This document shows, piece after piece, positions 20,975 to 43,214 of a stretch of 64,000 nt of DNA. A program made the position numbers and the translations under genes. Under the pieces are notes generated by a model. It searched no databases and was not told where the DNA came from. It worked only from the letters and a program-made list of their open reading frames with translations. The first letter of the stretch is position 1; each line of letters opens with the position of its first letter. Source of the stretch: Acidimicrobiia bacterium (lineage in GTDB: Bacteria; Actinomycetota; Acidimicrobiia; Spongiisociales; UBA5794); the NCBI GenBank assembly GCA_026985095.1, contig JALSQW010000018.1:23989-87988 (forward strand), given 5' to 3'.

Positions 20975-21071
20975 TGAGGGATCCTCGTTCGGCTGTGTCT
21001 TCCCGGCCCCACCCCACGCCGCTGGCGAGGTTACCGGCTGGGCCGGATAACCCGTGCCTTTTCGGCTCCCG

Positions 21072-22064
21072 TCACGGCTCGCGAACGCACCGGTAGCCGT
21101 GACGGGGATTCCCCCAATCCTTCGGTTGGTGGGCGACGATCGACCCCGAGTAGTTGACGTACCACGCCTCGTCGACGTCGAACTCGTCGGCGGTCCAGTA
21201 GTAGATCGGGGCCTCGTCGGGCGCCCACAGGGGGGTCTCCTTGTCGGGCTCGGTCGGGCACGAAGCCGACGCCGACACCCCGTCCCAGGTACATCCCACC
21301 GGCGAACCGTCCCGGACCAGGGATCCGACGACCTCGTCGGTGGTCGGCATCCGCCAGGCGCCGGCGGGCCGATCCTGCAGCTCGGTCCCGTCGGCCGACA
21401 GGTACCGACATAGCCCGAAGAGCTCCATGTCGTCTCCGGTCGCGTGCCGAGTCGGCATCGGATCGGCGCCCCACCAGGCGAGCTCGTCCCACGACATCCA
21501 GTCGTCGGGTTCGACCTGGTTCCAGCCGGGACCGGCCGGGGCCCAGATCAGGTCGATGCCGGCACCCACGATGCGCCGTTCCCCTCGATCGCCGTCGTCG
21601 AGGCGGGACGCCAGGCGAGGGATCCACATCGCCGACACCGCCACGGTGATCGCCATCGCCCCGCCGGCGACGGCCACCGCCGCCCAGCGACGCCGGGCCG
21701 GAGGAACCGCCGGGCCGAAACGCATGAGACCGGCCCCGAGCAGCACGATCGCTCCCGTCACGGGGAACCACCCGAGGAGGAACCGCACCCCGATCGTCGC
21801 TCCCCTCCCGATCTGGATGGCGAGCACGAACACGGTGTAGACGGCGCCGATGATCATCAACACCGCCCCACCCGCCCTCGGCCACAGGGCGGCGACGACG
21901 CCGAGCAGGACGAACACGACACCAGGGACCAGGTAGAAGGCGCGCTGCCACCACGGGCCCCACCAGCCTTCGTAGTACATCTCGATCGCTCCCCAGGCCA
22001 TCCAGGCGAAGGCGAACACACCGATGGCGCCGATGACGGCGAGACCGAGCCGGGATCCCTTCAC
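21072..22064 (-). CDS. membrane protein with C-terminal DUF1566 (Lcl C-terminal-like) domain
   Basis: About 4 TM helices ([14 protein letters not shown]..., [17 protein letters not shown]..., [16 protein letters not shown]..., [18 protein letters not shown]), then [13 protein letters not shown]...YYWTADEF...AWYVNYSGS...GYRCVREP, matching the DUF1566 pattern. The start is uncertain: GTG at 22064 is chosen to avoid overlap with prfB. The ORF track extends to 22283. Confidence 0.55.
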
Positions 22065-22117
22065 CCCCTCATCGTCTCGCCTCGGCGGCGGATGCCAAGG
22101 GGCGAAGGTCCCGGCCT

Positions 22118-23231
22118 TCAGGAGCCGCCGCTGCGGCTCCTCCGCCACTGCAGGTACGAATCGATGAGCGGATCGAGATCGCCGTCCAGGACGCCATTGA
22201 CGTTCCCGATCTCCAGGCCCGTACGCAGGTCCTTCACCATCTGGTAGGGCTGGAGGACGTAGGAGCGGATCTGACGACCCCACGCCGCCTCGGTCTGCTC
22301 GCCTCGGATGGCGTCGATCTCCTGCTGCTGCTCCTGGCGCTTCAGCTCGGCGAGGCGGGCGGCGAGGATCTGCATGGCTCGGGCCCGGTTCTGGATCTGG
22401 GATCGTTCCGCCTGGCAGGACACCACGACCCCGGTCGGCTCGTGGGTGATCCGGACCGCCGAGTCGGTGACGTTGACGTGCTGACCTCCGGCGCCCTGGG
22501 ACCGGAACGTCTCGATCCTCAGATCGTCGGGATTGATGTCCACCTCCTCGACCTCCACCTCGGGAACGACGTCGACGGCGGCGAACGACGTGTGCCGCCG
22601 GGCGTTGGCGTCGAAGGGACTGATCCTCACCAGACGGTGGACGCCGCGTTCCCCCTCGAAGGTCCCGTAGGCGAAGGGCCCCTTGATGGTGATGGTCGCC
22701 GACTTGATGCCGGCCTCGTCACCGGGCTGGTACTCGTCGACCTCGTAGCCGAACCCTGACCGTTCCAGGTAGCGGGTGTACATGCGGAACAGCATGTCGG
22801 CCCAGTCCTGGGCATCGACGCCTCCGGCGCCCGCGTGGATCGTCATGATGGCGGGACGGTCGTCGTAGGCACCGAAGAACAGCGTCTCGCGCTCGAGCTT
22901 GGCCAGGTCCTCCTCGACGCCGGCGAGCTCGGCCTCCACCTCCGCCAAGGTGGCCGCGTCGGACTCCTCGACGCCCATCTCGATGAGCACCTCGGCATCG
23001 TCGAGGCGAGCGGCGAGGTCATCCACGTGCTGGATGGTCTGTTCGTGGCGCGACAGCTTGCTGGTGACGGCCCGGGCCCGCTCCTGGTCGTTCCACAGGT
23101 CCGGTTCCGAGGCCTGTGCCCTCAGCTCCTCGAGCTCGGCGCGTTTGCCTTCGATGTCAAAGGAACCTCCGGGCGTCGTCGAGGCGCGAACGGAGTTCAC
23201 TGAGCTTGGCACGCAGGTCTGAAGGTTCCAT
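22118..23231 (-). CDS. prfB: peptide chain release factor 2, with programmed +1 ribosomal frameshift
   Basis: Frame 1 runs ATG(23231) MEPSDLRAKLSELRSRLDDARRFL then TGA at about 23157-23159 in the context GGAGG-ttc-CTT-TGA-C. The +1 frame continues DIEGKRAELEELRAQ...SPFDANARRHTSFA...GGQHVNVTDSAVRITH (GGQ motif) to the stop at 22118. The ORF track only shows the second frame, with spurious N-terminal read-through. Confidence 0.9.
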
Positions 23232-23264
23232 ATCGACCAGGGTAGCGGGGCGACCGACGGGCCC

Positions 23265-25925
<2,661 letters not shown>

Positions 25926-25981
25926 CGCGAGGAGATACTACGACCGCAGGGGCGGTTTCCGAACACCCTCGTCGGGGGCGG

Positions 25982-27328
25982 TCATACCGCGACGTCCTCG
26001 GCGATGTGTTCGAGGAGGGCGGCCGGGTCGACCCCGACATCCTCGGGGAGGACCTGCTCGGCGATCCGCTCGACCGGGACGAGGAGGGGCTCGGGCGCGG
26101 ACAGGTGGGTGCCGCCGCGGTCGACGACGATCATCGAGGGGAGGGGTGATCCCGGCTCGTCGACCTTGGCGACGACCACGGCGATCGCTCCGTCGACGGT
26201 CCGCAGGATCGATCCCGGTGGGTAGATGCCCATCATCCGGATGAACGAACGTACCAGGTCGGGGTCCCATGCGCTCCCGGCGCCGCCGAGGAGGATCTGC
26301 AGGGCCCGTGACGGGCTCTCGGCCCGCCGGTACGAGCGCCGGGAGGTGATGGCGTCGTAGGTGTCCACGACCTGGACGAGACGGCTGTAGACATGCGGGA
26401 CGCCGCTCCGGCTGACCCCCGGGTAGCCGGTGCCATCGAAGCGGGCGTGATGCTCGAAGGCGACGTTGGCGGCGATCTCCGATCCGGGCCCTCCGGCGGC
26501 GAGGATGGCGAGCGCACCTTCCTGGGGATGGACGGTGATCTCCTTCCATTGCTCGTCCGACAGCCGGCCGGGATAGTTGAGCGTCGACGGGGAGACGGCG
26601 ACCTTGCCGATGTCGTGGAGGACGGCGCCGACGCCGGCGGGTACGAGGATGTCACGATCGACACCGACCATCTGGCCGACGGCGAGCGACAGGATGCACA
26701 CGTTGACCGAATGGAAGAAGGTGTACTCGTCGTGCGACTTGACGGTCGACAGCAACAGCGCCGCCCCCGGATGGGCCAGGGCGTGCTCGAAGAGGCCTTC
26801 GACGGCGTCGACGACCGTGCCGAGCTCGAAGCTGCCACGGGCGACGATGGAGGACGAAGCGAGCCGTACGGCGTCGAGCGTCGATCCGTAGGAGGCGCGA
26901 AGCCGGGAGGCGGGGGTCGGTTCGAGCTCGGGGTCGGTGGTCATCGGCTCGTTGAGCAGGATCGTGCCATCGGCCGGCAGGTCGTCCGATGCGCCGCCGA
27001 CGAAGGCGGCCAGGTCGAACAGGTCGGCTCTGGAGATGGGCCGAACCATCGTGATCGAGTCGACACCCCTGATCTGCATCTCCTGGAGGAGACCCCGGTA
27101 CTCCAGCGACGCGTGGGGGACGACGACGCGGTTCCGGAAGAACGCCTCCTGGTGGATGGTGAGGGCGACCTCACCGTCGTCGCCGAGGAACTCGTCGGCT
27201 GCCTGGGCCACGAGCTCGACGGCTTCCTCGGTAGCCGGGTGACCCTCGGGATAGAGGCCGACCTGCCGGGCGAGTCGGCGCAGGGCATTGAGGAACCCGG
27301 CCACGTGACGTTCGGCGACGTTGCTCAT
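25982..27328 (-). CDS. HD-GYP domain phosphodiesterase (putative c-di-GMP hydrolase) with N-terminal uncharacterised sensor domain
   Basis: HSVNVC...VLHDIGK...HHARFDGTGYP, the full HD-GYP signature. The roughly 170-aa N-terminal domain has no recognised motif. Its start overlaps the stop of the HEAT-repeat gene (ATGA). Confidence 0.85.
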   Translation of the reverse strand: MSNVAERHVAGFLNALRRLARQVGLYPEGHPATEEAVELVAQAADEFLGDDGEVALTIHQEAFFRNRVVVPHASLEYRGLLQEMQIRGVDSITMVRPISRADLFDLAAFVGGASDDLPADGTILLNEPMTTDPELEPTPASRLRASYGSTLDAVRLASSSIVARGSFELGTVVDAVEGLFEHALAHPGAALLLSTVKSHDEYTFFHSVNVCILSLAVGQMVGVDRDILVPAGVGAVLHDIGKVAVSPSTLNYPGRLSDEQWKEITVHPQEGALAILAAGGPGSEIAANVAFEHHARFDGTGYPGVSRSGVPHVYSRLVQVVDTYDAITSRRSYRRAESPSRALQILLGGAGSAWDPDLVRSFIRMMGIYPPGSILRTVDGAIAVVVAKVDEPGSPLPSMIVVDRGGTHLSAPEPLLVPVERIAEQVLPEDVGVDPAALLEHIAEDVAV

Positions 27329-29307
27329 GGGACGCGCCGCGCTCTGGCCGCTCGAGCGGCGTTGCGGAGGGTGCGGCGACGGCTCCCGAACACGAACCGC
27401 CGGGAGGCCAGCTCGTCGATGACCGCGATCGCCATCGGATCGGCCCGGTCTCCGAGGATCGCGATGGCGGCCAGGGCGGCATCGACCGGGAGCCGGTCGG
27501 CCCGCAGCTCGGCGGCCACGAGCCGTTCGACGTCATCGAGCTCGGTGCCCTTGATCAGGGCGACGGCGGTGGTTCGGACCCGTTCGTGGTCATCGCCGAG
27601 GGCGCGAGCGACGAACGGGGCGGCGTCGGACTTGGCGAGCTTCACCATCGCCCGCAGCGCTTCCATACGGACCCGATGGTCGCTGTGATCCAGGACGACG
27701 CGAACACCGTGGATGGCGTCGCGGTTGGCGGTGCCGCCGAGGGCGGTGACGAGGTTGCGCACGAGGTACCAGCGGGGATCGGACAGGTACGGTTCGAGTT
27801 CGTCGGGCCGATGGCGAGCAGCCACGGCGAGAAGGTCGACCAGGGCGCGGCGCTTCGCGGCATCTTCTTCTTCGGCGAGACGGTGGACGAGCTGGTCGAC
27901 GGCGATGCGGCCGATCCGGTCCAGGATGACGGCGACGTGTTCCTCCTCGCCTTCCTCGTGACGAGAGAGGCGCCGGAACAGGTCGGCGGTCGTCATCCGC
28001 TCGAGCGCCTTGGCGATGGCTTCCTCCCGGCCCGGCGGGTAGGGCGGATCGTCGAGAACGCCCGCCAGGAGGCCGGCGGCGGCGGCGAGATCGCCGCTAC
28101 GGACGTGACGCGTCACACGGCCGGTCCACACACGGGCGGCGCGCTGGAATCGATCGTGGCGCTCCTCGCATTCGAGGAGTCCCCTGATGATGATCCGTTC
28201 GAGGGCGAGGGGGTCGACTGCTGCTTCCATCTCGGTACGGATCGCGGCGAGATCTTCGACGACGGCGCCATGTTTGGCGGCCGCCACGACGGAGGAGACG
28301 CGATCGGCGACGGACTTGCGGGACGCTTCCACTTCGACGGCGGAGTTGAGGCCGGCGAGGAGGTCGAGAGGGTGTCCCGATCCTTCGGACGAGGCTTCGA
28401 CGGCGTAGGCCAGAAGCCGTTCGGTGCCGGCATCGGAGAGGTCTCCCATCAGGTCCATGAGGTCGTGGCCGGAGAACTGATCGAGGAACATCTGGTGGTC
28501 CGGCCGCTCCATCTCGGCGAGGACCCGTTCGATGACCTCCACCTGCAGCCACCGTGGGAGCTGGAAGAACGACTCGATGAAGGTCCGGACGGTGCGGTAG
28601 GGATCGTCGGCGGGGATCCGGATGCCCGACAACAAGGTGCCGCTGGGATCGCCGAGGATCCGGTCGATCTGTTCACCGAGCTCGTGGAAGGCATCGACGT
28701 AGTCGGCGGCCCGGGCCTCGTCGGGTTCGGCGTCGTCCTCGATGACGGCGGCGGCGATCTCGCGGGGCTCGGCACCGTGCATGGCGATGGCGGCCAGGGG
28801 CGACAGCATGTCGAGATCGGCCATGGTGTCGACGTCTTCGTCGTCGTGGCGATGACCTTCGCCGGCGACCAGGTTCAGGAGGCCGCGTTGTTTGACCCTG
28901 ATGCCGGCCGACGGGGAACCGACGAGGGAGGCGGCGATGCCCCCCTCTGCTTCGACGGTGTCCTCGTCCCTGGCGATGACCGTGAAGAAGGCGGCGAGGC
29001 CCTGGGGTACGGCTTCGCCGACGAACTCGATCCATTCGACGTCGTGGACGAACAGCTGTTTGGCGAGCTTCTCCACACCGTCGCGTTCTGGTTGCACCTC
29101 GACGCCTTGGACGATGAACAGTCCGGGGCCGACCCCCACCGGGGGCAGGCTTCCGGCGTGGGCGGTGAGGAGGTCGACAGCACGCAGGAACGGCGGTTGG
29201 GCGGTCGGATCGGGGTAGAGCTGGTGGGTGAGCCAGGCCGCACCGAGACCGTTGAGCACGTCGAGCGTCTCGGCGTCGACACGGTCGATGGCGGCGGGCT
29301 GGCTCAT
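27325..29307 (-). CDS. HEAT/PBS-lyase-like repeat protein (660 aa), function unknown
   Basis: The C-terminal third has repeated helical pairs with conserved spacing, typical of HEAT repeats (DHRVRMEALRAMVKL, DHERVRTTAVALIKG, LRADRLPVDAALAAIAILGD). The N-terminal roughly 400 aa are acidic with no known domain. Coupled at both ends. Confidence 0.6.
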   Translation of the reverse strand: MSQPAAIDRVDAETLDVLNGLGAAWLTHQLYPDPTAQPPFLRAVDLLTAHAGSLPPVGVGPGLFIVQGVEVQPERDGVEKLAKQLFVHDVEWIEFVGEAVPQGLAAFFTVIARDEDTVEAEGGIAASLVGSPSAGIRVKQRGLLNLVAGEGHRHDDEDVDTMADLDMLSPLAAIAMHGAEPREIAAAVIEDDAEPDEARAADYVDAFHELGEQIDRILGDPSGTLLSGIRIPADDPYRTVRTFIESFFQLPRWLQVEVIERVLAEMERPDHQMFLDQFSGHDLMDLMGDLSDAGTERLLAYAVEASSEGSGHPLDLLAGLNSAVEVEASRKSVADRVSSVVAAAKHGAVVEDLAAIRTEMEAAVDPLALERIIIRGLLECEERHDRFQRAARVWTGRVTRHVRSGDLAAAAGLLAGVLDDPPYPPGREEAIAKALERMTTADLFRRLSRHEEGEEEHVAVILDRIGRIAVDQLVHRLAEEEDAAKRRALVDLLAVAARHRPDELEPYLSDPRWYLVRNLVTALGGTANRDAIHGVRVVLDHSDHRVRMEALRAMVKLAKSDAAPFVARALGDDHERVRTTAVALIKGTELDDVERLVAAELRADRLPVDAALAAIAILGDRADPMAIAVIDELASRRFVFGSRRRTLRNAARAARARRVP

Positions 29308-29308
29308 G

Positions 29309-29959
29309 TCATCCGAGGGAGATGAGGTTCTCGCGGACCGCGTACAAGACGGCTTCGTTGCGCGAGTGCAGGCCGAGCTTGTCGAGGATGTTCCGGATGT
29401 GGTTCTTGACCGTGTTCTCGCTGATGAACAAGAGCTCGCCGATCGCCCTGCTGGTGTGACCCTTGGCGACCATCTCGAGGACCTCGATCTCGCGGCCGGT
29501 CAGGGTGGGCCTGCGGCTCTGGAGGAGCTCCTGGTGGCGCAGGAGGTGACGGCCGACGTCGAAGAGCTTGCCGGCCATCTGGGGGGAGATCGCCGCTCCG
29601 CCGGCGGCGATGGCCTCGATCGAGTCGACGAGCTGGGGGAAGGGCATGTCCTTGACGAGGTAGCCGCGAGCACCGGCCTTGATGGCGGCGAGGAGGTCCT
29701 CTTCGGATTCGCTGCCGGTGAGCAACACGACCGAGGCGTCCGGAGCCACCGCGGTGATCTTCTCGACCACGTCGAGACCCGACAGGCCCGGCATGAGCAC
29801 GTCGAGGAGGACCACGTCGGGTTGGAGGCTCTCGGCCAGACCGACCGCGCCTTCGGCGTCGGCGGCTTCGCCAACGACGTCGAAGCCCGCTTCCTTGAGT
29901 GCGGAGGTGAGCCCGGCACGGAAGAGCGGCACATCGTCGACTACCAGCAGCCTCTTCAT
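29309..29959 (-). CDS. two-component response regulator, NarL/LuxR family
   Basis: Receiver domain (LLVVDDVPLFRAGL...PDVVLLDVLMP) plus a LuxR-type HTH (LTGREIEVLEMVAKGHTSRAIGELLFISENTVKNHIRNIL). Its ATG lies 1 nt after the hpf stop, with a GGAG RBS inside the hpf 3' end. Confidence 0.9.
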   Translation of the reverse strand: MKRLLVVDDVPLFRAGLTSALKEAGFDVVGEAADAEGAVGLAESLQPDVVLLDVLMPGLSGLDVVEKITAVAPDASVVLLTGSESEEDLLAAIKAGARGYLVKDMPFPQLVDSIEAIAAGGAAISPQMAGKLFDVGRHLLRHQELLQSRRPTLTGREIEVLEMVAKGHTSRAIGELLFISENTVKNHIRNILDKLGLHSRNEAVLYAVRENLISLG

Positions 29960-29960
29960 C

Positions 29961-30518
29961 TCACTCCGGTTCGATCAGTCCCAGGTTCCCGTCTCTGCGG
30001 TGGTAGAGCACGGCGTACCTACCGGTCTCGCCGTCGAGGAAGAAGAAGAAGTCGTGTCCGAGCATCTCCATCTGCAGTACGGCCTCCTCCACCGTCATCG
30101 GCTTCATCGCGAACCGCTTCTCGCGGACGATCGCGTTCGTCCGATCCGGTTCTTCTTCGTCCTGTTCCGGAGCGGCATTGAGTGCTTTGTTGTCGTGGTT
30201 GCCGCGAGCGCGCCGTCGATCGACGAGGCGTTCCTTGAGCCTGCGGAGCTGCCGTTCGTAGCGGTCGGAGGCGGTCTCGAACGCGGTGCGGGCGTCGAAG
30301 GCGGCGGACTCGACGCGCACGACGTGGCCGGCGACGACACTGGTGATCTCGACCTCGTATCGACCGTCGGATTGACGCGGGTTGGTGTGCTCGGTGAACT
30401 CGACGTCGACGTCGCCGTCACCGTCGAGGATCCGCGATGCGCGCTCGATCTTGTCTTCGACGAGGCGCTTCAGCTCGTCCTCGAGGTGCATGTTCCGACC
30501 GTGGATTCGAACGCTCAC
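29961..30518 (-). CDS. hpf: ribosome hibernation-promoting factor (long HPF)
   Basis: GTG start. N-terminal RaiA/HPF fold (HLEDELKRLVEDKIERA...YEVEITSVVAGHVVRVES) and the C-terminal dimerisation domain of long HPFs. Confidence 0.9.
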   Translation of the reverse strand: MSVRIHGRNMHLEDELKRLVEDKIERASRILDGDGDVDVEFTEHTNPRQSDGRYEVEITSVVAGHVVRVESAAFDARTAFETASDRYERQLRRLKERLVDRRRARGNHDNKALNAAPEQDEEEPDRTNAIVREKRFAMKPMTVEEAVLQMEMLGHDFFFFLDGETGRYAVLYHRRDGNLGLIEPE

Positions 30519-30540
30519 GCGTTGCTCCTTTCATAGACGA

Positions 30541-30566
30541 CTGCGCCCGCGGCTCCGCGGGCGCAG
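30541..30566. terminator. GC-rich hairpin CTGCGCCCGCGG-ct-CCGCGGGCGCAG between comFC stop and hpf start
   Basis: Read directly: 12-bp perfect arms. Lies 30 nt downstream of comFC and about 20 nt upstream of the hpf RBS (AAGGAG). No U-tract follows. Confidence 0.4.
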
Positions 30567-30596
30567 TGACACCTGCTACGTCGCATGCGGGGATGC

Positions 30597-31157
30597 TCAG
30601 CGATGGTGATGCACCTCCGGCGATGTGTCGGCTTCTCCTCGAATGGTACCCCCGCTGGTGGCGGTGATCCCATGGGCCGGAAGACCCGACAGGGCGAGGG
30701 ACGCGGCCCGAAGGGTGGCGCCGGAGGTGACCACGTCGTCGACGAGCACGATCCCCGGCCCGAGGAGATCCGTTGCGGCTCGGAATCGGGCGGCGGAGCG
30801 CAGCGAACCCTGGCGGCCGGCGTGGCGGGGCCACCAGATGCCGGGAAGCAGCAGGGCGAGCGCGGGGAGATCGACATGACGGCCGACCCGGTGGGCGAGC
30901 TCGGCGGCGGGGTCGATGCCGTACCGGAGGCGGCGTCCCAGCGCGCGGGGGACGGGCACGAGGGCGGCAGCGTCGCGGGGAACGAGGGGGGCCATGGCGA
31001 CGGCGAGGGCGTCGGCGGCGGCGAGGTTGCGACGGTACTTGAGCTCGTGGACCATGTGACGGGCGGCGGCCTCGTGGGCGTATGCGGCGCGGACGACGAG
31101 TCCCCCGCCGAGATGCCGTTCGCCGCCCGGGCGAGCGTCCGGAAGCGGGTGGTGCAT
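30597..31157 (-). CDS. comFC: ComF-family phosphoribosyltransferase-domain protein
   Basis: C-terminal PRTase motif VLVDDVVTSGATL. Start chosen at MHHPLPDA (186 aa). The upstream part of the ORF-track entry is antisense to the FtsH-like gene. Conserved actinobacterial position upstream of hpf. Confidence 0.75.
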   Translation of the reverse strand: MHHPLPDARPGGERHLGGGLVVRAAYAHEAAARHMVHELKYRRNLAAADALAVAMAPLVPRDAAALVPVPRALGRRLRYGIDPAAELAHRVGRHVDLPALALLLPGIWWPRHAGRQGSLRSAARFRAATDLLGPGIVLVDDVVTSGATLRAASLALSGLPAHGITATSGGTIRGEADTSPEVHHHR

Positions 31158-31293
31158 CGACGAACCGTACCGCGCCGAGTGGACCGGTACTAGTACGCGA
31201 TGCGGAGCACGAAATGACCACTCGTTGTAGCAACGCACCCACACCGGGTGTCGTATGGTGGGGACGGGCAGCGAACGGGCGAACAGGGGGCGT

Positions 31294-33153
31294 ATGGGCA
31301 TCGACGTGTCCGCGACGAGGGAACGACAGCGACGGGCGCGGTTGGGTCGGCTGGTCGTCATCCTGACCCCGGTCGCGGCGTGGCTCTGGTACCGCATCGC
31401 CATCGGCGATCCCGTCTCTCCCGGATGGCCGACGCTGCCTGCCGACGCGGTGTTCTGGCTCCCAGGGATCCTGCTCATCGCCATGCTCGGCTTGGTCCTC
31501 GTGCTCCCGATGGTGGGCAACGGGCGATCGCCGCACACGATCTTCCTGCCCGAGCAGCTCGAGTTCGGGTTCGAAGGCGTCAAGGGCATGGCCAACACCA
31601 CCGCCGAGGTGCGCAGGACGTTGGAGGTGTTCTTGAACCACGAGAGGTTCCGCACCGAACTGGGCGGAACCCCGAGACGGGGCGTGCTGTTCGAAGGACC
31701 GCCGGGGACGGGCAAGACGCACATGGCCAAGGCGATGGCCAAGGAAGCAGGCGTGCCGTTCCTGTACGTATCGTCGACGGCGTTCCAATCGATGTGGTAC
31801 GGAGCGACGGCACGGAAGATCCGCACCTACTTCCGGGATCTGCGCAAGGTGGCGAGACGGGAAGGCGGAGCGATCGGCTTCATCGAGGAGATCGATGCGA
31901 TCGGCACTCGCAGGGGCGGGTTGGGGTTCTCGGCCATGCCGAGCACCTCGATCTTCGGGGCTCTCCGGATCGAGCCGTCGGCCATCGCCCAGGGAACCGG
32001 CGGGGTCGTCAACGAGCTCCTCATCCAGATGCAGAGCTTCGACCAGCCGAGCCGGGTCGACCGGATGCGCAACGCCGTCATCCGCTACGTGAACCGCTAC
32101 CTGCCCGAGCATCGAACGATGAAGACCCGCCCGGCGGCCTTCGCCAACGTGCTGCTGATCGGCGCCACGAACCGTGCGGACTCCCTCGACCCGGCTCTGC
32201 TCAGGCCCGGTCGGTTCGACCGGATCCTCACGTTCGACCTCCCCTCGCGGGCGGATCGCCGCGAACTCATCGACCTGTTCCTCCAGCGACGGGCTCACGC
32301 GCCGGGGCTGGATGAGGACCCGGCCAGGGACGCGCTCGCGGCGACGACGATGGGATACACACCGGCGGCACTGGAACGGCTCTTCGATGAGGCTCTGCTG
32401 GTGGCGATGCGCGACGGACGTCACCGACTGGAAGCCGCCGATGTCCGTCAGGCCCAGATGGAAGTCGAGATCGGGTTGCCGTCCCCGGTGGAGTACACCG
32501 AGGAGGATCGCCGCCGGATCGCCACCCACGAGGCGGGGCACACGACGGTCGCCTACCTGTCGGGAACCCGGAGGCTCGAGGTCCTGTCGATCATCAAGCG
32601 CAAGGAGTCCTTGGGACTGCTGGCACATCGAGACGAAGAGGAGCGCTTCACCAGGACCGAGTCGGAGATGAAGGCCCTGCTCCAGATCGCCATGGGGGGG
32701 ATGGTGGCCGAGGAGGTGTTCTTCGGCGAAGCGGGCACCGGGCCGGCGGGCGATCTGGCTGCGGCGACACGCCTGGCCGCCGATATGGTCGGGTCGTTCG
32801 GACTGGGAGGAACGTTGATCTCGTTCCGGGCGCTCGATCCGGGGATCGCGGGCGGCAACCTCGTGGCCCGGGTGCTGGCCGATCCGACGGCCCGCAAGGT
32901 CGTCGACCGACTCCTCAAGGACGCCAAACACGAAGCGACGAGGCTCCTGGCCGACCACCGGCACCTGGTCGAGGCCCTCCGCGACGCGCTGCTCGATCGA
33001 GAGGAGCTGATGGAGCGTGACATCCTGGAGGTCCTGCGGGAAGCCGAGGCACGCCGGATCGCCAAGCAGGACAACGTGCTCGTCGATCTGCGGGAACGCC
33101 CGTCACCGTCACCGGACGACCGGATCCAGATCCTGCCGCTCGACGCTCCCTGA
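31294..33153 (+). CDS. FtsH-family membrane AAA+ zinc metalloprotease (paralogue-like)
   Basis: Two N-terminal TM helices, AAA module (LFEGPPGTGKTHMAKAMA...LLIGATNRADSLDPALLRPGRFDR) and M41 peptidase HEAGH. Start at MGIDVS with an AGGGGG RBS. Confidence 0.8.
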   Translation: MGIDVSATRERQRRARLGRLVVILTPVAAWLWYRIAIGDPVSPGWPTLPADAVFWLPGILLIAMLGLVLVLPMVGNGRSPHTIFLPEQLEFGFEGVKGMANTTAEVRRTLEVFLNHERFRTELGGTPRRGVLFEGPPGTGKTHMAKAMAKEAGVPFLYVSSTAFQSMWYGATARKIRTYFRDLRKVARREGGAIGFIEEIDAIGTRRGGLGFSAMPSTSIFGALRIEPSAIAQGTGGVVNELLIQMQSFDQPSRVDRMRNAVIRYVNRYLPEHRTMKTRPAAFANVLLIGATNRADSLDPALLRPGRFDRILTFDLPSRADRRELIDLFLQRRAHAPGLDEDPARDALAATTMGYTPAALERLFDEALLVAMRDGRHRLEAADVRQAQMEVEIGLPSPVEYTEEDRRRIATHEAGHTTVAYLSGTRRLEVLSIIKRKESLGLLAHRDEEERFTRTESEMKALLQIAMGGMVAEEVFFGEAGTGPAGDLAAATRLAADMVGSFGLGGTLISFRALDPGIAGGNLVARVLADPTARKVVDRLLKDAKHEATRLLADHRHLVEALRDALLDREELMERDILEVLREAEARRIAKQDNVLVDLRERPSPSPDDRIQILPLDAP

Positions 33154-33235
33154 CGGACCCGTCGAGCGACGGACCCGTCGAGCGCCCGTCGAGCACCCGC
33201 GATCACGTCTCCGAGGTCGCTCCTCGACCACGATC

Positions 33236-33333
33236 CCCCAACCCAGGGTTCGCCACACCCCTCCAGGGGGCTCACCAACCCAGGGTTCCCAATACCCCTC
33301 CAGGGGGTTCACCAACCCAGGGTTCGTCACGAT
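33236..33333. repeat. tandem array of about 2.7 copies of the 37-bp unit (AACCCAGGGTTCgccacaCCCCTCCAGGGGGctcacc), locus C
   Basis: AACCCAGGGTT starts at 33240, 33277 and 33314, a period of 37. The array lies between the convergent FtsH-like gene (stop 33153) and ahcY (stop 33338). Confidence 0.85.
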
Positions 33334-33337
33334 GGGG

Positions 33338-34585
33338 TCAGGTGCCGAGTTCCCAGGACGACAGGTAGCGGCGCTGCTCGTCGGTGAGGGACTCGAGGCC
33401 GCCACCCATCGACGCCAGCTTGATCCGAGCGACCTCCTCGTCGAGCTCCCGCGGCAAGACGTACACGTCGGGATCGAGATCGGCGCCGTGGTCCACCAGC
33501 CATTCGGCAGCCAATGCCTGATCGGCGAACGACATGTCCATCACGTCGGCGGGATGACCCTCCGCCGCCCCCAGGTTCACCAGCCGACCTTCGGCCACCA
33601 CCAGGATGCGGCGTCCATCCGGCAGCGTGTACTCGTCGAGGTTCTCGCGCAGACGACGCTTCGCGTCGGCCATGGCATCGAGCGCCACGAGATCCAGCTC
33701 GACGTCGAAGTGTCCGGCGTTGGCCAGGATCGCCCCATCCTTCATCACCGCGAAGTGCTCGGCCCTGAAGACGTGGATGTCGCCGGTGGCGGTGATGAAC
33801 ACGTCACCGACCTCGGCCGCGTCCATCGACGTCATCACCCGGTACCCCTCCATCGCCGCCGACACGGCACGGATGGGGTCCACCTCGACCACCACGACGT
33901 GGGCACCCAAACCCGAGGCCCGGCGAGCGATCCCCCAGCCGCAGTCGCCGAATCCCCCGACGACGACGGTCCTGCCGGCGAACAGGATGTTCGTGGCCCG
34001 CAAGATGCCGTCCAGGGACGATTGGCCCGTCCCGTGCCGGTTGTCGAACAGGTGCTTGGTCGGAGAGTCGTTGACCGCCACCACCGGGAACCGCAACACG
34101 CCCTGGGCCGCCATCGCCCGGAGCCGGATCACCCCCGTGGTCGTCTCCTCCATCCCCCCGAGGATCGGCAGCTCCGAGCGCTCCTTGTGCAGGACCGTCG
34201 TCGTGTCCGCGCCATCGTCGAAGACCAGATCGGGACCGGTGTCCAAGATCGCATGGATATGCCGGTAGAACGTGTCGGCATCCTCGCCGCGGCGGGCGAA
34301 CACCGGGATGCCCATCTCCACCAGCGCAGCCGCCACGTCGTCCTGGGTCGACAACGGGTTCGAAGCTGCCAGCGCCACCGAGGCTCCTCCGGCCACCAAC
34401 GTCCGCATCAGGTTCGCCGTCTCCGACGTCACGTGCATGCACGCCGCGATCTGCTTGCCGTCCAACGGCCGCTGCGCGGCGAACCGCTGCCGGATCGTCG
34501 CCAGCACCGGCATGCGCCGTTCGGCCCATTCGATCCGGCGCTCACCTTCGGCGGCGAGGGCCGGATCGGCGATGTCGTGGTTCAT
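33338..34585 (-). CDS. ahcY: adenosylhomocysteinase
   Basis: SAHH motifs throughout (CMHVTSETANL, NAD-binding GFGDCGWG). Start at MNHDIADP overlaps the stop of the upstream gene (ATGA). Confidence 0.95.
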   Translation of the reverse strand: MNHDIADPALAAEGERRIEWAERRMPVLATIRQRFAAQRPLDGKQIAACMHVTSETANLMRTLVAGGASVALAASNPLSTQDDVAAALVEMGIPVFARRGEDADTFYRHIHAILDTGPDLVFDDGADTTTVLHKERSELPILGGMEETTTGVIRLRAMAAQGVLRFPVVAVNDSPTKHLFDNRHGTGQSSLDGILRATNILFAGRTVVVGGFGDCGWGIARRASGLGAHVVVVEVDPIRAVSAAMEGYRVMTSMDAAEVGDVFITATGDIHVFRAEHFAVMKDGAILANAGHFDVELDLVALDAMADAKRRLRENLDEYTLPDGRRILVVAEGRLVNLGAAEGHPADVMDMSFADQALAAEWLVDHGADLDPDVYVLPRELDEEVARIKLASMGGGLESLTDEQRRYLSSWELGT

Positions 34586-37906: not shown

Positions 37907-38371
37907 TCAGAGCTGCGACTCGGACGGGACCACCTTGGCGGCCTCGATGGCATCGCCGAAGACGATGTCGCGGTACGACGCGAACTTGGGCAGCAGGATC
38001 ACGACCGACGTCGCCAGGTAGACCCCGTTGGCCGTCAACGTCGACAACGGCCCGAAGAACGTCTCCGCCGTCCACATGGTGCCCGCGGTGACCGCCCAGG
38101 CGGCCAGGTTGATCAGGTAGAAGTGCGCCGTCTCGCGCCCGGAGACCTTCCCATCGGTCAGCTCGAACGTCCATGCCCGGTTCACCAGGTACGACAGGAA
38201 CGTCGTGATGGCGAACGCGATCGACACCGCCACGACCGAGAACATCCCCATCCACAGGAACAGGTTGAACAGGGCGAACGACACCACGGTGTTGCCGACA
38301 CCGACGATGCCGACCTTGACGAACTGGGCGAGCGCCCGACGGTTCATGAAGGTCGCCAGGTAGTCCTTCAC
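37907..38371 (-). CDS. GtrA-family membrane protein (putative polyprenyl-P-sugar flippase)
   Basis: Four TM helices about 150 aa long. FVKVGIVGVGNTVVSFALFNLFL is the typical GtrA start. GTG start overlaps the upstream stop (GTGA). Confidence 0.7.
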   Translation of the reverse strand: MKDYLATFMNRRALAQFVKVGIVGVGNTVVSFALFNLFLWMGMFSVVAVSIAFAITTFLSYLVNRAWTFELTDGKVSGRETAHFYLINLAAWAVTAGTMWTAETFFGPLSTLTANGVYLATSVVILLPKFASYRDIVFGDAIEAAKVVPSESQL

Positions 38372-40557
38372 GAGGTCGCTCCCACCGTACGTCGGCGATA
38401 GCCGTAGACCCCGAGCCCGATCAGGGCGATGATCGTCGTCGCCATACCCAGTTTCTCGGCACCCTTGTCCACGAACTCGAGGGTTACCTGCTCCTGGGTG
38501 GGGACGACGACCATCAGCGATGGGGCGGCCCGGTACGGCCCTTCGGCGCCTGTCGCCTCCCAGTTCGGGAAGTACGACACCTTCACCAGGTGCGGGACCC
38601 CGACCGCGGTGGTCGTGAACGACACCGAGCCGTCGCCGACGACCACGTCCGACACCACCGGCTTCGGTCCCACGTACGGCACCGTCGAGTCGAGGCGATC
38701 CTCCACCGCCGAGACGCGATCCCACGACGCCGGGCCGTCGGCGACCATCCAGCGGTCGAGGTTGTCGACGTCGTCGTACCACCGCAGCGATGCGTCGACG
38801 AAGTCCTCTTCCCCGGCCCACACCACCGGGCGGACCGTCGCCACGTCCACCGCCGAGGATTCGGGCAAAGCGAAGATGGTCCACGGCGGCGAGACCGCCA
38901 GCTCCTCGAGCCCTGCGGCTCGGGCCTCCTCGGCCCCCCGTTCGGTGTACGCCACGTAGTAGGCGACGTCGTAGAGGGCCAGGTGCTTCAGGCCCCGGTC
39001 GAAGTTCAGACCCCGGTACTGCAGACCTCGCACCGGGTTCGAGGGACGTTCGGACACCTCCGAGGCGTTGAGGAAGTGGAACGGGGTCGTCAACGACGAC
39101 TCGAAGAACAGCCCCTCCATCGAGGGATGGCCCTTCGACCAGTACGGCAACAACATCAACGCCATCGGCGTCCCGTACGTGTTCATGTCGTTGTTCGCTT
39201 CCCACATGACGCGACCAGGCGGCAACGCATCGATGGTCTCCATCAGCGCCGCGTACTCCGGGTACACGGCCTTGCCCTCATAGCCTTCGTAGTTCCATTT
39301 CACCCAGCCGGGCACGTCATGGATCGACACCGCCGTGCCGGCCAGGAACACGAGCGCCGCCAGCGGCGCACCGACCGACACCACGAAGCGCCGGTCGTTC
39401 CATCGCCTCGCCACTTCGGTGACGGCCAGGCCGGCGGCGATCCCGGCGAACACGTACATCCCGAAGTACCAGTAGGGCAGCAACCTGGCGTTGTAGAGCT
39501 TCGTCGAATCGAACACGGCCAACAGCGCGTAGCCGGCCAGCGGCACCACCGTCATCGTGGCCAGGACGACCACGTCGTCGCGGCGAGCCAGCGTCCACAC
39601 GAGCCCCAACAACCCGAGAACGAAGATGGGCACGAACTCTCCCGGCAACGGCGAACCGGGGATCGCGTCGCCGATGATGTTGGTCACCGGCTCCCATCCC
39701 ATGTCGGTCGTCATCGAGAGCCGGGACAGCAGCGGGAGCGCCCAGAACGCGGCCAACGAGAACCCGAGGATCCACGACGTGAGCACGGTGCGCGGACCAT
39801 GACGTCTCCCCATCAGCGGCACCGACGCCACGACGGCCACCATGGTCGTGACGATGTGGCTCAACGCGGTCAGCGCCAACACCACTCCCGGCCAGGCGTC
39901 GAACCGCCTCCCGGCTCGGGTGGCACGCGCCACCAGACCCAGATAGACCAGCGACAGAGCGAACGACCACGAGAACGAGTACTCCCCCGCCAGTGTCGAT
40001 TTGATGTTGGCCCCGAAGATCGAGAAGCTCTCCATGAACACGAACATCCCGCCGGCGACCGCCGCCACCGCCGCCACGACCCTGACGAAACCCAACGATC
40101 GGACCAGGAAGTAGGTGGCCAGGGGAAGGGCCACCAGTCCGGCGATCGTCACCAACTTGAACGCCACGCCGTAGGGCAAGGCGACGTCGAGCAGCACGAT
40201 CGCGAGCGCCGGAAGCGGGAAGTAGAAGTAGAAGACCGGGAACCCGGCGTACCAGTCGTTGCTCCACCCCAAGATGCGGCCTTGGGGGAGCAACTCCTCG
40301 CCGAGGATCTTCGGCACCAACACGTGGGCACCCATGTCACCGCCGGTCGGGGTGTTGGCGACGAACAGGTCGGGGAACCGCCACAGGGACCCGGCACCGT
40401 TGACGAATCCTCCGAACGCCCCCGACATGACGAGGAAGATCATGAGGGTCGGCGCCGCCACGATCGCCGCCACCAGCCCTGGATGGACCCTCGATCGGCG
40501 TGGCCGAGGGACCTCCGGTGTCGTGTCGGTCTCGGGTGGCGCGGCGGTGGCGGTCAC
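38368..40557 (-). CDS. large integral membrane protein, probable GT-C-fold glycosyltransferase
   Basis: 729 aa. More than 10 N-terminal TM helices, a large extracytoplasmic domain, and a C-terminal TM. Coupled to GtrA and near a GT2. Confidence 0.6.
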   Translation of the reverse strand: MTATAAPPETDTTPEVPRPRRSRVHPGLVAAIVAAPTLMIFLVMSGAFGGFVNGAGSLWRFPDLFVANTPTGGDMGAHVLVPKILGEELLPQGRILGWSNDWYAGFPVFYFYFPLPALAIVLLDVALPYGVAFKLVTIAGLVALPLATYFLVRSLGFVRVVAAVAAVAGGMFVFMESFSIFGANIKSTLAGEYSFSWSFALSLVYLGLVARATRAGRRFDAWPGVVLALTALSHIVTTMVAVVASVPLMGRRHGPRTVLTSWILGFSLAAFWALPLLSRLSMTTDMGWEPVTNIIGDAIPGSPLPGEFVPIFVLGLLGLVWTLARRDDVVVLATMTVVPLAGYALLAVFDSTKLYNARLLPYWYFGMYVFAGIAAGLAVTEVARRWNDRRFVVSVGAPLAALVFLAGTAVSIHDVPGWVKWNYEGYEGKAVYPEYAALMETIDALPPGRVMWEANNDMNTYGTPMALMLLPYWSKGHPSMEGLFFESSLTTPFHFLNASEVSERPSNPVRGLQYRGLNFDRGLKHLALYDVAYYVAYTERGAEEARAAGLEELAVSPPWTIFALPESSAVDVATVRPVVWAGEEDFVDASLRWYDDVDNLDRWMVADGPASWDRVSAVEDRLDSTVPYVGPKPVVSDVVVGDGSVSFTTTAVGVPHLVKVSYFPNWEATGAEGPYRAAPSLMVVVPTQEQVTLEFVDKGAEKLGMATTIIALIGLGVYGYRRRTVGATS

Positions 40558-41401: not shown

Positions 41402-41866
41402 CTAGCGCCGTTCGTCGCCGGCGTCGGGCATTTCGTCCACCGTCGCCCGCTTCCACGCCGCTCGCAGCCATCGCCTCGGAGGAACCCCCGAGACCTGCCC
41501 CACGGGACGGCCGGTGGCGTCGACGACGACCGTCAACGGCACCGCCTCCACGCCTCGAGCCTCCAACGTCGCCCCCTCCAGCTCCCACGTGATCTCCCGC
41601 ACGGGTGCTCCGGTCCCCTCCACCGCGGCCAGAGCCGCCTTGCACGAGGAACAGTCCGTCGAGGTGAACAGGACGATCCCGGGCGTCGGTGCCAGATCCG
41701 ACACGTCGACCGGTGGATGCGACGGCCGCTGCCACCGCCCCGCCGCCCTGGCGACGACCACCGCCACCACGAGCAGCGCCGCGACCACGCCCAGGCGGAT
41801 CACCACCTCCACGTCGAGCACCTCATCGCACCGGAACCGCCGACAGGAACGCCACACCGCGCGCAT
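41402..41866 (-). CDS. membrane-anchored thioredoxin-fold protein (hypothetical)
   Basis: TM helix VVIRLGVVAALLVVAVVVA, then LFTSTDCSSCK. The true start is probably a GTG near 41821, so the first about 15 codons of the track ORF overlap the upstream gene. Confidence 0.45.
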   Translation of the reverse strand: MRAVWRSCRRFRCDEVLDVEVVIRLGVVAALLVVAVVVARAAGRWQRPSHPPVDVSDLAPTPGIVLFTSTDCSSCKAALAAVEGTGAPVREITWELEGATLEARGVEAVPLTVVVDATGRPVGQVSGVPPRRWLRAAWKRATVDEMPDAGDERR

Positions 41867-43214
41867 CGACGATCGACACCGCGACCGACACCGGGGCCGA
41901 ACCCACCACCCGGTACCCCTCGATGTCGTCGCCGGACTCGACGTCGACGGCCACCACGGTTCCCGCCTCGACGACCACCTTGTCGGGCTCCAGCCCGGTC
42001 GGCCCGAGCGGCTCGACCGCGACCGTGGCCGACGTCGAGCCGGTGTTCAGTACCCAGATGGTGGCCACCGAGTCCTCCAGCGACCCGGTCGCCGGCACCA
42101 GCCAGCGTTCGGCGGGCGATCGGACGCCCACCGTCCCCGCCACTCCCTCGATCGGCGGCCGAACCTCGCCCCCCTCCTCGTCTTCAGGGGGAACCGACTC
42201 CTCATCGACGACCGGAGGCAGCGCCTCCACCGTCGCCGCCACCGGTCCGCCAGATCGCAACCGCACCCCGAAGGGTGGCGCGGCGATCTCCGCCAGGGGG
42301 ATCCTGATCGGGGTCGACGCCTGGACCTCCACCGTCGTCGCCTCCTCGATGGACCCATCGGGGCCGTACACGTCGATGACCACCGACACCGGCGAGTCGT
42401 CGGCATTCGAGATCGTCAGGTACGGCACCAGTTCACCGGCGGCCGTGACCGGGAACTCCCAGGTGGTCGCCGGACCGGACCCGGGCCAGGACGCCTCGTC
42501 GGTATCGCCCGCCAGCACCAGGGAAGGGATGACGAGCCCTTGGCTCGTCGACACCAGCACCGACAGCACGTCACGCAACGGGAGGGTCGTCGTCAGGTCG
42601 ATCGTCGCCCAACTCCGGCCGGCCACATCGAAACCCTCGTATTCGGGCAGCGGCTCGGACCCGAACTCCGACAACGCGGTGATGTCCACCTTGGCGAGCT
42701 CCGCGAAGGGGTTGAAGAGCCGCAGCTCGACGAAGAGCCCGGTCGCCGTCGAACCGCCGGTCAGATGCCACTGCTTCGGCACCGACGTGACACACCGATC
42801 ACCGGTGACCACCGCGTCGGACCACACCACCGCTCCCGCCGCAGCCGGACCGTCGTCGAACTCCACGATGGCGGGGCTCTCGCCCCGCCGGACGACCGAC
42901 CCGATATCGAGGTCCACGGCGTCGAGGGCACGAAGGGTCAACGGCAAGGTGTCGGGCGCCTCGTTCGGAAACGGGCTCGGCAACGACACCAATGCCTCCA
43001 CCGGCACCTCCGAGGCCAACCCGATCACCGAGTCCCGAACCGCCCCCGCGTCGACCCATGGGCAGTACCAGGCACTGGTCCGACCCACGGCGTCGCCCGC
43101 GTCCAGCGTCGTGTCCGTTCCGAAATCGGGGCCTGAAGGCTCACCGGGTCGGACCGCCGTCGACGCCACCACGGCGAGCACCGCCACGACCACCAACGCG
43201 ACCATCCTCCTCAT
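41823..43214 (-). CDS. secreted/membrane-anchored hypothetical protein (DUF5719-like)
   Basis: Signal anchor MRRMVALVVVAVLAVVAST. About 460 aa, beta-rich, no catalytic motif. Its start overlaps the stop of the GT2-membrane fusion gene (ATGA). Confidence 0.5.
   Translation of the reverse strand: MRRMVALVVVAVLAVVASTAVRPGEPSGPDFGTDTTLDAGDAVGRTSAWYCPWVDAGAVRDSVIGLASEVPVEALVSLPSPFPNEAPDTLPLTLRALDAVDLDIGSVVRRGESPAIVEFDDGPAAAGAVVWSDAVVTGDRCVTSVPKQWHLTGGSTATGLFVELRLFNPFAELAKVDITALSEFGSEPLPEYEGFDVAGRSWATIDLTTTLPLRDVLSVLVSTSQGLVIPSLVLAGDTDEASWPGSGPATTWEFPVTAAGELVPYLTISNADDSPVSVVIDVYGPDGSIEEATTVEVQASTPIRIPLAEIAAPPFGVRLRSGGPVAATVEALPPVVDEESVPPEDEEGGEVRPPIEGVAGTVGVRSPAERWLVPATGSLEDSVATIWVLNTGSTSATVAVEPLGPTGLEPDKVVVEAGTVVAVDVESGDDIEGYRVVGSAPVSVAVSIVDARGVAFLSAVPVR

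Follow-up and report, generated by a model that had tools for sequence, protein, structure and literature searches.

The stretch of DNA analyzed here, hereafter the window, comprises 64,000 nt from an Acidimicrobiia bacterium (contig JALSQW010000018.1, positions 23,989 to 87,988), and all feature coordinates given below are window positions. It contains a minus-strand gene cluster that reads, in order, a comF-like gene, hpf (encoding the ribosome hibernation factor HPF), and genes for a response regulator (RR), a HEAT-repeat protein and an HD-GYP protein, followed by secA and prfB. We argue that the genes from hpf to the HD-GYP gene are probably a single operon assembled from two separable conserved units, one consisting of hpf and the RR gene and the other being a cassette of the HEAT and HD-GYP genes. 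The identities of these four genes had been proposed in an earlier note on this DNA and are borne out by profile matches. The features of the locus, all on the minus strand, are as follows.

About 30597 to 31190 (5' end approximate), minus strand: comF-like gene, weak match to TIGR00201 comF (E 5e-7)
30540 to 30567, minus strand: hairpin in the interval between the comF stop and the hpf Shine-Dalgarno sequence, from sequence reading and RNAfold
29961 to 30518, minus strand: hpf, 185 aa, GTG start, from Pfam and TIGRFAM profiles
29309 to 29959, minus strand: orphan RR of the NarL/LuxR type, 216 aa, from REC and GerE profiles
27325 to 29307, minus strand: HEAT-repeat protein, 660 aa, HEAT_2 match of 44.8 bits
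28927 to 29277, minus strand: N-terminal domain of the HEAT protein, residues ~11-127, containing LYPDP, from hhalign
27559 to 27804, minus strand: HEAT repeats of the PBS-lyase type, residues 502-583, from the HEAT_2 match
25982 to 27328, minus strand: HD-GYP protein, 448 aa, HD_5 match of 54.5 bits
26945 to 27307, minus strand: N-terminal domain of the HD-GYP protein, residues ~8-128, containing LYPEGHP, from hhalign
26234 to 26776, minus strand: HD-GYP catalytic domain, residues ~185-365, from alignment to PmGH
25935 to 25966, minus strand: promoter-like block before secA, from conservation among related loci
23265 to 25925, minus strand: secA, with five of five SecA Pfam domains

The four genes from hpf to the HD-GYP gene are packed with almost no sequence between them. 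A single base separates the hpf TGA from the RR ATG, as the earlier note had stated, and the GGAG Shine-Dalgarno sequence of the RR gene lies inside the 3' end of hpf. The junction between the RR and HEAT genes, which had been described as an ATGA overlap, reads TGA-C-ATG and is a gap of 1 nt; an ATGA does occur at the RR stop, but in a frame other than that of the HEAT open reading frame (ORF). The overlap claimed for the next junction is real: the HEAT stop and the HD-GYP start share the 4 nt ATGA, and no separate Shine-Dalgarno sequence precedes the HD-GYP gene. The gap from the HD-GYP gene to secA is 56 nt. Promoters or terminators between the genes, which would have counted against coupling, were not found. 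A consensus scan of positions 23000-33000 returned no sigma-70-like promoter site and only terminator-like sites at chance level, the one weak minus-strand site within the HEAT gene being within chance expectation, and an Rfam scan of positions 21000-34000 with E up to 1 gave zero matches, so neither a c-di-GMP (cyclic di-GMP) riboswitch nor any other was detected there.

The arrangement is conserved far beyond the window. Related loci, given here by L numbers, were picked as contigs with homologues of the HEAT protein, the HD-GYP protein or the RR, and in 10 of 11 such contigs the full order comF-hpf-RR-HEAT-HD-GYP-secA-prfB is kept, which is the outcome of the gene-order comparison at hpf-secA that the earlier note had proposed; in L002-L008 and L014 the order continues into ftsEX. 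The nearest public relative, contig JALVQZ010000107 of an Acidimicrobiia metagenome-assembled genome (MAG), has an RR 100%, an HD-GYP protein 96% and a HEAT protein 94% identical to those of the window. Across the related loci identity to the window falls to 32-55% for the HEAT protein, 49-72% for the HD-GYP protein, 43-69% for HPF, 64-80% for SecA and 67-84% for the RR, and the junctions are kept nonetheless: hpf and the RR gene overlap by ATGA in five loci and are 1-27 nt apart in the others, the RR/HEAT junction ranges from -4 to +19 nt, and the HEAT and HD-GYP genes overlap by 4 nt in most loci. Tight junctions retained between loci so divergent are well beyond chance and have the signature expected of an operon. 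Since the arrangement is conserved over such deep divergence, and given the packing of the genes, it is reasonable to infer that hpf is co-expressed with the RR and HD-GYP genes, as had been suggested.

The boundary with secA is of a different kind, and the gap ahead of secA measures 43-99 nt in every related locus. Reading along the minus strand, the block before secA in the window consists of GTGTTCGGAAA (25966-25956), a 15-nt gap (25955-25941), TAGTAT (25940-25935), a further 9 nt, and the secA ATG at 25925; taking TGTTCG (25965-25960) as the -35-like hexamer gives a spacing of 19 nt to TAGTAT. There is no Shine-Dalgarno sequence ahead of the secA ATG. The -10-like hexamer recurs 8-10 nt before the secA ATG in L002, L004, L006, L013 and L014. 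Of these, L002, L004 and L006 also have the upstream TGTTC-like block, and a weaker version of it is seen in L013, where the gene upstream is that of the RR. These features suggest a dedicated promoter and a leaderless secA mRNA, so that secA is probably a separate transcription unit. Because secA has its own promoter-like block, a position between hpf and secA does not imply a transcript common with secA. The backbone comF-hpf ... secA-prfB-ftsEX is one that the window has in common with the hpf-secA neighborhoods of B. subtilis and mycobacteria, whose gene orders we take to be yvyD-secA-prfB and comF-hpf-secA1, respectively. Relative to the Gram-positive hpf-secA-prfB neighborhood, the window has three extra genes between hpf and secA, and the promoter-like block of secA in addition.

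These extra genes do not behave as one block. In L013, a contig of 2.09 Mb, the order is comF-hpf-RR-secA with no HEAT or HD-GYP gene; the ATGA overlap of hpf and the RR gene is kept, the gap from the RR gene to secA is 59 nt, and the RR is 81% identical to that of the window by global alignment. A neighbor-joining tree of hpf, RR and SecA (763 ungapped columns) nests L013 among the cassette-carrying loci, with L005 and L008 outside, and loss of the cassette is therefore the simplest history of L013. Conversely, the cassette occurs without the other genes: in L009-L012 a HEAT-family gene is followed by an overlapping HD-GYP gene (4-8 nt) in unrelated contexts, without hpf, RR or secA, as in L009, where the pair lies between ligA and gatC. 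The HEAT proteins of these four loci are 23-27% identical to the window protein. For a broader census, metagenome contigs were scanned with the HEAT-family alignment and selected solely by the motif DxRW[YF][VL][VLA]RN, and the 80 loci returned were annotated. An HD-GYP gene comes next on the same strand after 67 of the 68 HEAT-family ORFs that have at least 1.3 kb of downstream sequence. The pair is linked to hpf, RR or secA in 22 of the 80 loci (GC content 58-71%), and the other 58 show none of these genes (GC content 42-73%), and in 28 of them the contig extends far enough upstream for the absence of hpf and RR to be real. Because the GC content of the unlinked cassettes runs from 42 to 73%, many of them are not Acidimicrobiia-like. 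On this census the HEAT and HD-GYP genes are a near-obligate conserved unit, which is associated with hpf in one lineage only. The single inserted RR-HEAT-HD-GYP trio of the earlier note is thus not what is found, because L013 keeps the RR without the cassette and cassettes occur without hpf, RR or secA; occurrence of the trio away from hpf, which had been named as evidence against a link, is seen for the HEAT and HD-GYP genes, and the RR gene stays coupled to hpf.

Several census loci depart from the usual layout. In L060 (1813-8366) the HEAT and HD-GYP pair is present in two tandem copies, and in L020 (2-1940) and L025 (2704-5275) extra HD-GYP-like ORFs lie just upstream of the pair. The sole census HEAT-family ORF with ample downstream sequence yet no HD-GYP gene is in L079 (1469-4213) and is unusually long at ~915 aa.

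The RR belongs with hpf. The two genes are coupled in 11 of 11 loci showing both, and the RR is the better conserved partner of the cluster, exceeding even the essential SecA across the same loci; each of the best 120 RR homologue clusters has a length of 215-216 aa and an identity of at least 80%, and the homologues listed among them are labeled Acidimicrobiia, Actinobacteria or unclassified 'bacterium', or carry no source name. Matches to Response_reg (94.1 bits) and GerE (72.1 bits) are both above curated cut-offs, the receiver residues read from the translation are complete (D8/D9, D52 in LLDVLMPG, T81 and K103), and the closest solved structures are NarL (1a04, the best, E 1.9e-34), VraR, ChrA and DevR; the score against the NarL equivalog NF007935 is 164 bits, below the cut-off of 250. 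We considered whether the RR might be a c-di-GMP-binding LuxR regulator of the VpsT type, and this was ruled out because the translation contains no Trp and hence no W[FLM][TS]R motif. Consistent with the earlier description of the RR as lacking an adjacent histidine kinase, the ORFs scanned across the window include no HisKA or HATPase_c kinase, and neither a histidine kinase nor a GGDEF/EAL gene was called within 6-8 kb of the cluster in L002-L008, L013 and L014.

A comparable locus is known in Streptomyces coelicolor, where SCO3009 is HPF (PMC7157823, Table 2) and the neighboring SCO3008 encodes OrrA, an orphan RR of the NarL type that is highly conserved and whose gene lies between mtrAB-lpqB and secA (PMC9739842; bioRxiv 10.64898/2026.01.30.702861); synteny of the OrrA region in Streptomyces is mentioned in PMC13118837. 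The OrrA kinase, OhkA (SCO1596), is encoded elsewhere, and OrrA activates wblA and a DUF5999 gene and is required for development (PMC9739842; bioRxiv 10.64898/2026.01.30.702861). The window RR likewise is a very conserved orphan NarL-type regulator adjoining hpf directly and upstream of secA, and we regard it as a positional counterpart of OrrA, the equivalence being one of gene position only. The synteny comFC-hpf-secA that the earlier note took as its reference is accordingly incomplete, as Streptomyces has orrA beside hpf. Given this adjacency in Streptomyces, the RR gene beside hpf is not to be explained by an insertion unique to the window genome, and its position there is probably old in Actinomycetota; coupled to hpf in L013 without the cassette and placed like OrrA, it is for these reasons not part of the insertion. 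The Streptomyces locus differs from the window in having no HD-GYP gene, the only HD-GYP proteins of Streptomyces being HdgA and HdgB, membrane proteins with six transmembrane segments that are encoded elsewhere (PMC6205966), and published work on hpf-orrA does not discuss translational coupling or a coupled pair. A second parallel is DosR (DevR), a NarL-type RR that controls the HPF paralogue RafH and so is likewise linked to a hibernation factor of the long-HPF type in growth arrest (PMC10799931). Unlike the window RR, DosR has an adjacent kinase and acts on rafH in trans, whereas the link in the window is physical, within one predicted operon.

The two cassette proteins are related to each other at their N-termini. 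The likeness is visible by eye ('LYPDP...' in the HEAT protein and 'LYPEGHP...' in the HD-GYP protein) and is detected by profiles only, pairwise BLASTP of one protein against the other giving no match. Profile-profile comparison with shallow alignments gave E 0.009, and with 73 HEAT-family sequences E 7.9e-6 at a probability of 84%. In a final hhalign comparison of the excised N-termini, which used an HD-GYP set enlarged by the partners in L009-L012 and L014, 117 columns (HEAT 11-127 against HD-GYP 8-128) aligned at E 1.3e-11, probability 97.4 and a score of 69.9; controls with a reversed alignment, 20 column shuffles and N- against C-terminal parts scored 7-16, with a maximum of 15.6. The order of elements in AlphaFold2 models is identical in both N-terminal domains (two helices, beta-meander, helix, strand, helix, strand), and in the census a hidden Markov model of the domain matches 40 of 58 HEAT proteins and 57 of 67 partner HD-GYP proteins. 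The domain profile found no meaningful match among PDB sequences, and no N-terminal Pfam family, DUF3391 included, was found in any of 73 HEAT and 20 HD-GYP members at E up to 1. By these profile comparisons, the HEAT and HD-GYP proteins carry homologous and previously undescribed N-terminal domains of ~120 residues.

The HD-GYP protein has the hallmarks of an active enzyme of its family. Its matches to HD_5 (54.5 bits, cut-off 27.2) and HD (37.5 bits, cut-off 22) are found again in 20 of 20 family members tested, its motifs are HDIGK and HHARFDGTGYP, and the stretch around the GYP motif (HHExxDGxGYP) reads EHHARFDGTGYP. The best PDB relative is the c-di-GMP phosphodiesterase PmGH (4mcw, E 2e-24; E 6e-36 with the family profile), followed by the cGAMP (cyclic GMP-AMP)-specific V-cGAP3 (5z7c) and PA4781 (4r8z). 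Residues H206, H238-D239, K242, H267, H293-H294, D298, G301-Y302-P303 and D325 align with PmGH, the metal-ligand set H...HD...H...HH...D is complete in the window protein, and the catalytic residues are invariant in 25 of 25 family members, those of cassettes unlinked to hpf included. A catalytically dead HD-GYP protein, which would have told against the signaling role first proposed, is thus not what these residues predict. PmGH (4mcw), PA4781 (4r8z), V-cGAP3 (5z7c), Bd1817 and DvhD have the same catalytic domain, with a complete H..HD..H..HH..D set and GYP motif. From these characterized proteins the window HD-GYP protein differs in its N-terminal domain, which has no Pfam or PDB match, in an extra C-terminal beta domain, and in its obligate HEAT-repeat neighbor with a homologous N-terminal domain. 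The C-terminal domain (residues ~374-425; window 26054-26209, minus strand) is small and beta-rich, follows a conserved YPPGS, and has no Pfam match and no PilZ motifs. Fusion of a REC domain to HD-GYP, as in RpfG, is the classical architecture; no REC domain is present in the window HD-GYP protein or in any of 20 family members. RpfC/RpfG resembles the window in pairing the genes of a receiver-domain protein and of an HD-GYP enzyme, and differs in that the window REC domain is fused to a LuxR-type helix-turn-helix (HTH) domain, no kinase is adjacent, and RR and HD-GYP occur independently.

The HEAT protein is acidic (isoelectric point 4.97), and its HEAT_2 match at residues 502-583, in the C-terminal part, coincides with the best-conserved segment of the family (DxRWYVVRN, HxDxRVRxEALR). 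Its AlphaFold2 model (mean pLDDT 82) has an N-terminal alpha/beta domain (~10-140) followed by an all-helical solenoid, for which Foldseek returned only generic ARM/HEAT solenoids, PP2A A subunits and importins among them. The family comprises 319 representatives (50% clustering) at E below 1e-30, most of the top matches being 620-690 aa long; the cluster members sampled that carry a source name, which few do, are all Acidimicrobiia MAGs. Scores against the PBS-lyase HEAT equivalogs CpcE and NblB are far below cut-off (21.8 against 330 and 15.8 against 300), so that the likeness to these proteins is limited to the repeat type. Like the HEAT protein beside its HD-GYP neighbor, the PP2A A subunit is an alpha-solenoid beside a metal-dependent phosphohydrolase; this is an analogy only, because the PP2A catalytic subunit belongs to the PPP family, as against the HD superfamily here, and there is no homology beyond the repeat fold. 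The earlier note had offered the HEAT protein as a scaffold or a partner-switch component. The first suggestion is strengthened by the N-terminal domain common to the HD-GYP protein; the second is without support, because Pfam searches of the four proteins, 73 HEAT-family members and 20 HD-GYP-family members returned no STAS, anti-sigma kinase or PP2C match. In L007 (5035-7000, on a 1.9-Mb long-read contig) the HEAT gene is fragmented and its neighbors are intact, probably through an assembly frameshift rather than as a pseudogene.

The first gene of the proposed operon encodes a long HPF. Its product matches PF02482 (65 bits), PF16321 (91.3 bits) and TIGR00741 (57.1 bits, cut-off 40.9), all above cut-offs, and thus has both the N-terminal S30AE domain and the C-terminal dimerization domain of long HPFs; it gives full-length matches to ribosome-bound long HPFs such as 5nd8/6fxc and 8uu4, 100S structures included. 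The GTG start is preceded by the Shine-Dalgarno sequence GAAAGGAG at ~30525-30533. Ahead of this, a perfect GC-rich 13-nt inverted repeat, ACTGCGCCCGCGG / CCGCGGGCGCAGT, forms the minus-strand hairpin at 30540-30567, which RNAfold pairs over 12 bp with a 4-nt loop. Hairpins of unrelated sequence occupy the same position in L002, L004-L008 and L014, with a T-run after the hairpin in L014, and the element may be a comF terminator or a stabilizer of the hpf 5' untranslated region. As an operator for the RR the hairpin was rejected on the grounds that its sequence varies from locus to locus, in contrast to the HTH domain of the RR, which shows at least 80% conservation. Folding z-scores computed for the entire hpf leader are not significant, and an operator search upstream of hpf in nine loci recovered only comF coding conservation and the Shine-Dalgarno sequence.

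The genes around the cluster are of the housekeeping type, with those for FtsH, AdoHcy hydrolase, PGI and PGM upstream and prfB, ftsEX, an M23 peptidase gene and smpB downstream. In the comF-like gene the Pribosyltran match covers residues 253-381 of a 409-aa ORF, and a gene of ~200 aa stands at the comF position in L002-L008, L013 and L014 as well. Beyond secA, prfB has the classical programmed +1 frameshift: from the ATG at 23231 (minus strand) 24 codons ending in CTT are followed by TGA C (CTT TGA C at 23162-23156), with an SD-like GGAGG 3 nt upstream, and the ORF at 22118-23491 is the post-shift frame. Elsewhere in the window, the minus-strand intervals 38368-40557, 43211-46000 and 41823-43277 hold 729- and 929-aa ORFs with high GC content at third codon positions and no significant Pfam match, which adjoin a DUF5719 protein and glycosyltransferases and may belong to a cell-envelope locus.

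Taken together, these results suggest that the locus is probably one operon composed of two separable conserved units. The first, hpf and RR, would be the invariant core. Translation of the RR would be tightly coupled to that of hpf, and the protein, presumably activated through phosphorylation by a kinase encoded at another locus (the role of OhkA for OrrA), would serve as a transcription factor. Induction of hpf accompanies growth arrest in other bacteria, and a similar induction here would give one transcript supplying HPF, the RR and a complex of the HEAT and HD-GYP proteins. The second unit most likely does form such a heteromeric complex, because its proteins have homologous N-terminal domains, its genes overlap without a Shine-Dalgarno sequence and the pair is almost never separated. 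Within it the HD-GYP subunit would hydrolyze, and so lower, a cyclic dinucleotide, most probably c-di-GMP, and the HEAT solenoid would be a regulatory or scaffold subunit, the N-terminal domains serving for pairing or for binding a common ligand; the two proteins would thus be either a stoichiometric heteromer or two readers of the same ligand. The cassette would have come between the RR gene and the secA promoter in an ancestor of this group of Acidimicrobiia and then been inherited vertically and lost once, in L013. Lying between the RR gene and the secA promoter, it would therefore be expressed from the hpf transcript. A functional link between ribosome hibernation and c-di-GMP is an inference, as the earlier note itself said.

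Several observations weigh against this interpretation. The cassette is dispensable in L013, so that any role in hibernation is non-essential, and the tree used to place L013 carries no support values. The RR-HEAT gap of 15-19 nt in L004 and L014 leaves room for an internal promoter before the HEAT gene. At the other end of the proposed operon, the consensus scan found no promoter upstream of hpf and a strong hairpin stands just before the Shine-Dalgarno sequence, so that the 5' end of the operon is tentative. Orthology of the RR with OrrA rests on position. As regards the enzyme, the third-metal Glu of PmGH aligns with Y202, a conserved E201 lying one position earlier, and the AlphaFold2 model of the HD-GYP core is of low confidence (pLDDT 45-60).

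Alternatively, the cassette may have settled neutrally in a permissive spot between the RR gene and the secA promoter, its co-expression with hpf being without adaptive meaning. The many unrelated contexts in which cassettes are found, the loss without replacement in L013, and the much faster evolution of the cassette proteins (HEAT 32-55%, HD-GYP 49-72%) than of the RR or SecA are all consistent with such hitch-hiking. Nevertheless, the position and tight junctions are kept down to 64% identity in SecA, at the upstream junctions of the cassette no gap on either side exceeds 19 nt, the cassette stands at this very site in 22 of 80 independent census loci, and the HD-GYP active site appears to be under strict purifying selection. 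The long retention of position and of tight junctions weakens the neutral account, which we consider doubtful.

We hold it to be about equally doubtful that the HD-GYP protein acts on another nucleotide, such as 3'3'-cGAMP or pGpG, or serves mainly as a nucleotide receptor in the HEAT complex. The cGAMP-specific V-cGAP3 as second-best solved relative, the shift of the third-metal Glu by one position, and the finding of no GGDEF/EAL gene among the ORFs scanned across the 64-kb window all point in this direction; the c-di-GMP phosphodiesterase PmGH is nevertheless the best solved relative, PA4781 also matches, and the canonical HD-GYP residues are all invariant. Apart from the substrate, this alternative is compatible with an operon of two units.

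A single inserted signaling module of RR, HEAT and HD-GYP, regulating hibernation through c-di-GMP at the level of hpf expression or HPF action, appears unlikely. Four tightly coupled genes found together in 10 of 11 related contigs and 22 census loci are what such a module predicts, and NarL-type regulators can control HPF-like factors, as DosR does RafH (PMC10799931). This integrated model is weakened, however, by L013 and by the many hpf-free cassettes: the RR gene accompanies hpf without the cassette in L013 and in the hpf-orrA locus of Streptomyces, and in most loci the cassette occurs without RR or hpf. In addition, no conserved operator was found upstream of hpf in the nine loci searched, the RR has no VpsT-like c-di-GMP motif, and the known targets of OrrA are wblA and the DUF5999 gene, not hpf (bioRxiv 10.64898/2026.01.30.702861). 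A split RpfG-like system, in which the RR binds through its REC domain to the HD-GYP protein or the HEAT/HD-GYP complex and phosphorylation controls activity, is suggested by the presence of REC and HD-GYP functions in one operon and is very improbable, since the RR already has a DNA-binding domain as its output and is far more conserved than the HD-GYP protein, most cassettes have no RR nearby, and L013 retains the RR without any HD-GYP protein.

Long HPF, NarL-type RR and HD-GYP families are already known individually, as is the hpf-orrA adjacency in Streptomyces; in open-access papers and preprints we found no description of an HD-GYP protein with an obligate HEAT partner, of their common N-terminal domain, or of an hpf operon containing an HD-GYP gene. 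The findings overturn nothing, and they define, at the level of sequence, a widespread candidate two-protein phosphodiesterase module and a new domain, and reveal that hpf and an OrrA-like regulator are deeply linked. Under the two-unit interpretation, HD-GYP proteins, which are far less understood than EAL enzymes, would gain a widespread subclass that always has a HEAT partner, together with a testable hypothesis of heteromer formation and a new N-terminal domain family to define. It is a decidedly speculative thought, and to us an improbable one, that the HEAT/HD-GYP pair is an unrecognized class of heteromeric cyclic-dinucleotide phosphodiesterase wired into the hpf-RR operon, its solenoid docking the enzyme on hibernating ribosomes, HPF or the RR and so tying second-messenger turnover to entry into or exit from hibernation. 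If the two-unit interpretation is correct, the coupling of hpf to an orphan RR that is better conserved than SecA and placed like OrrA suggests an ancient actinobacterial link of hibernation with a developmental or growth-arrest regulator, which could be tested in the tractable Streptomyces. The Acidimicrobiia are abundant and mostly uncultured and their signaling is essentially unknown, and the operon would, if the interpretation is correct, be a candidate entry point to how these bacteria enter dormancy.

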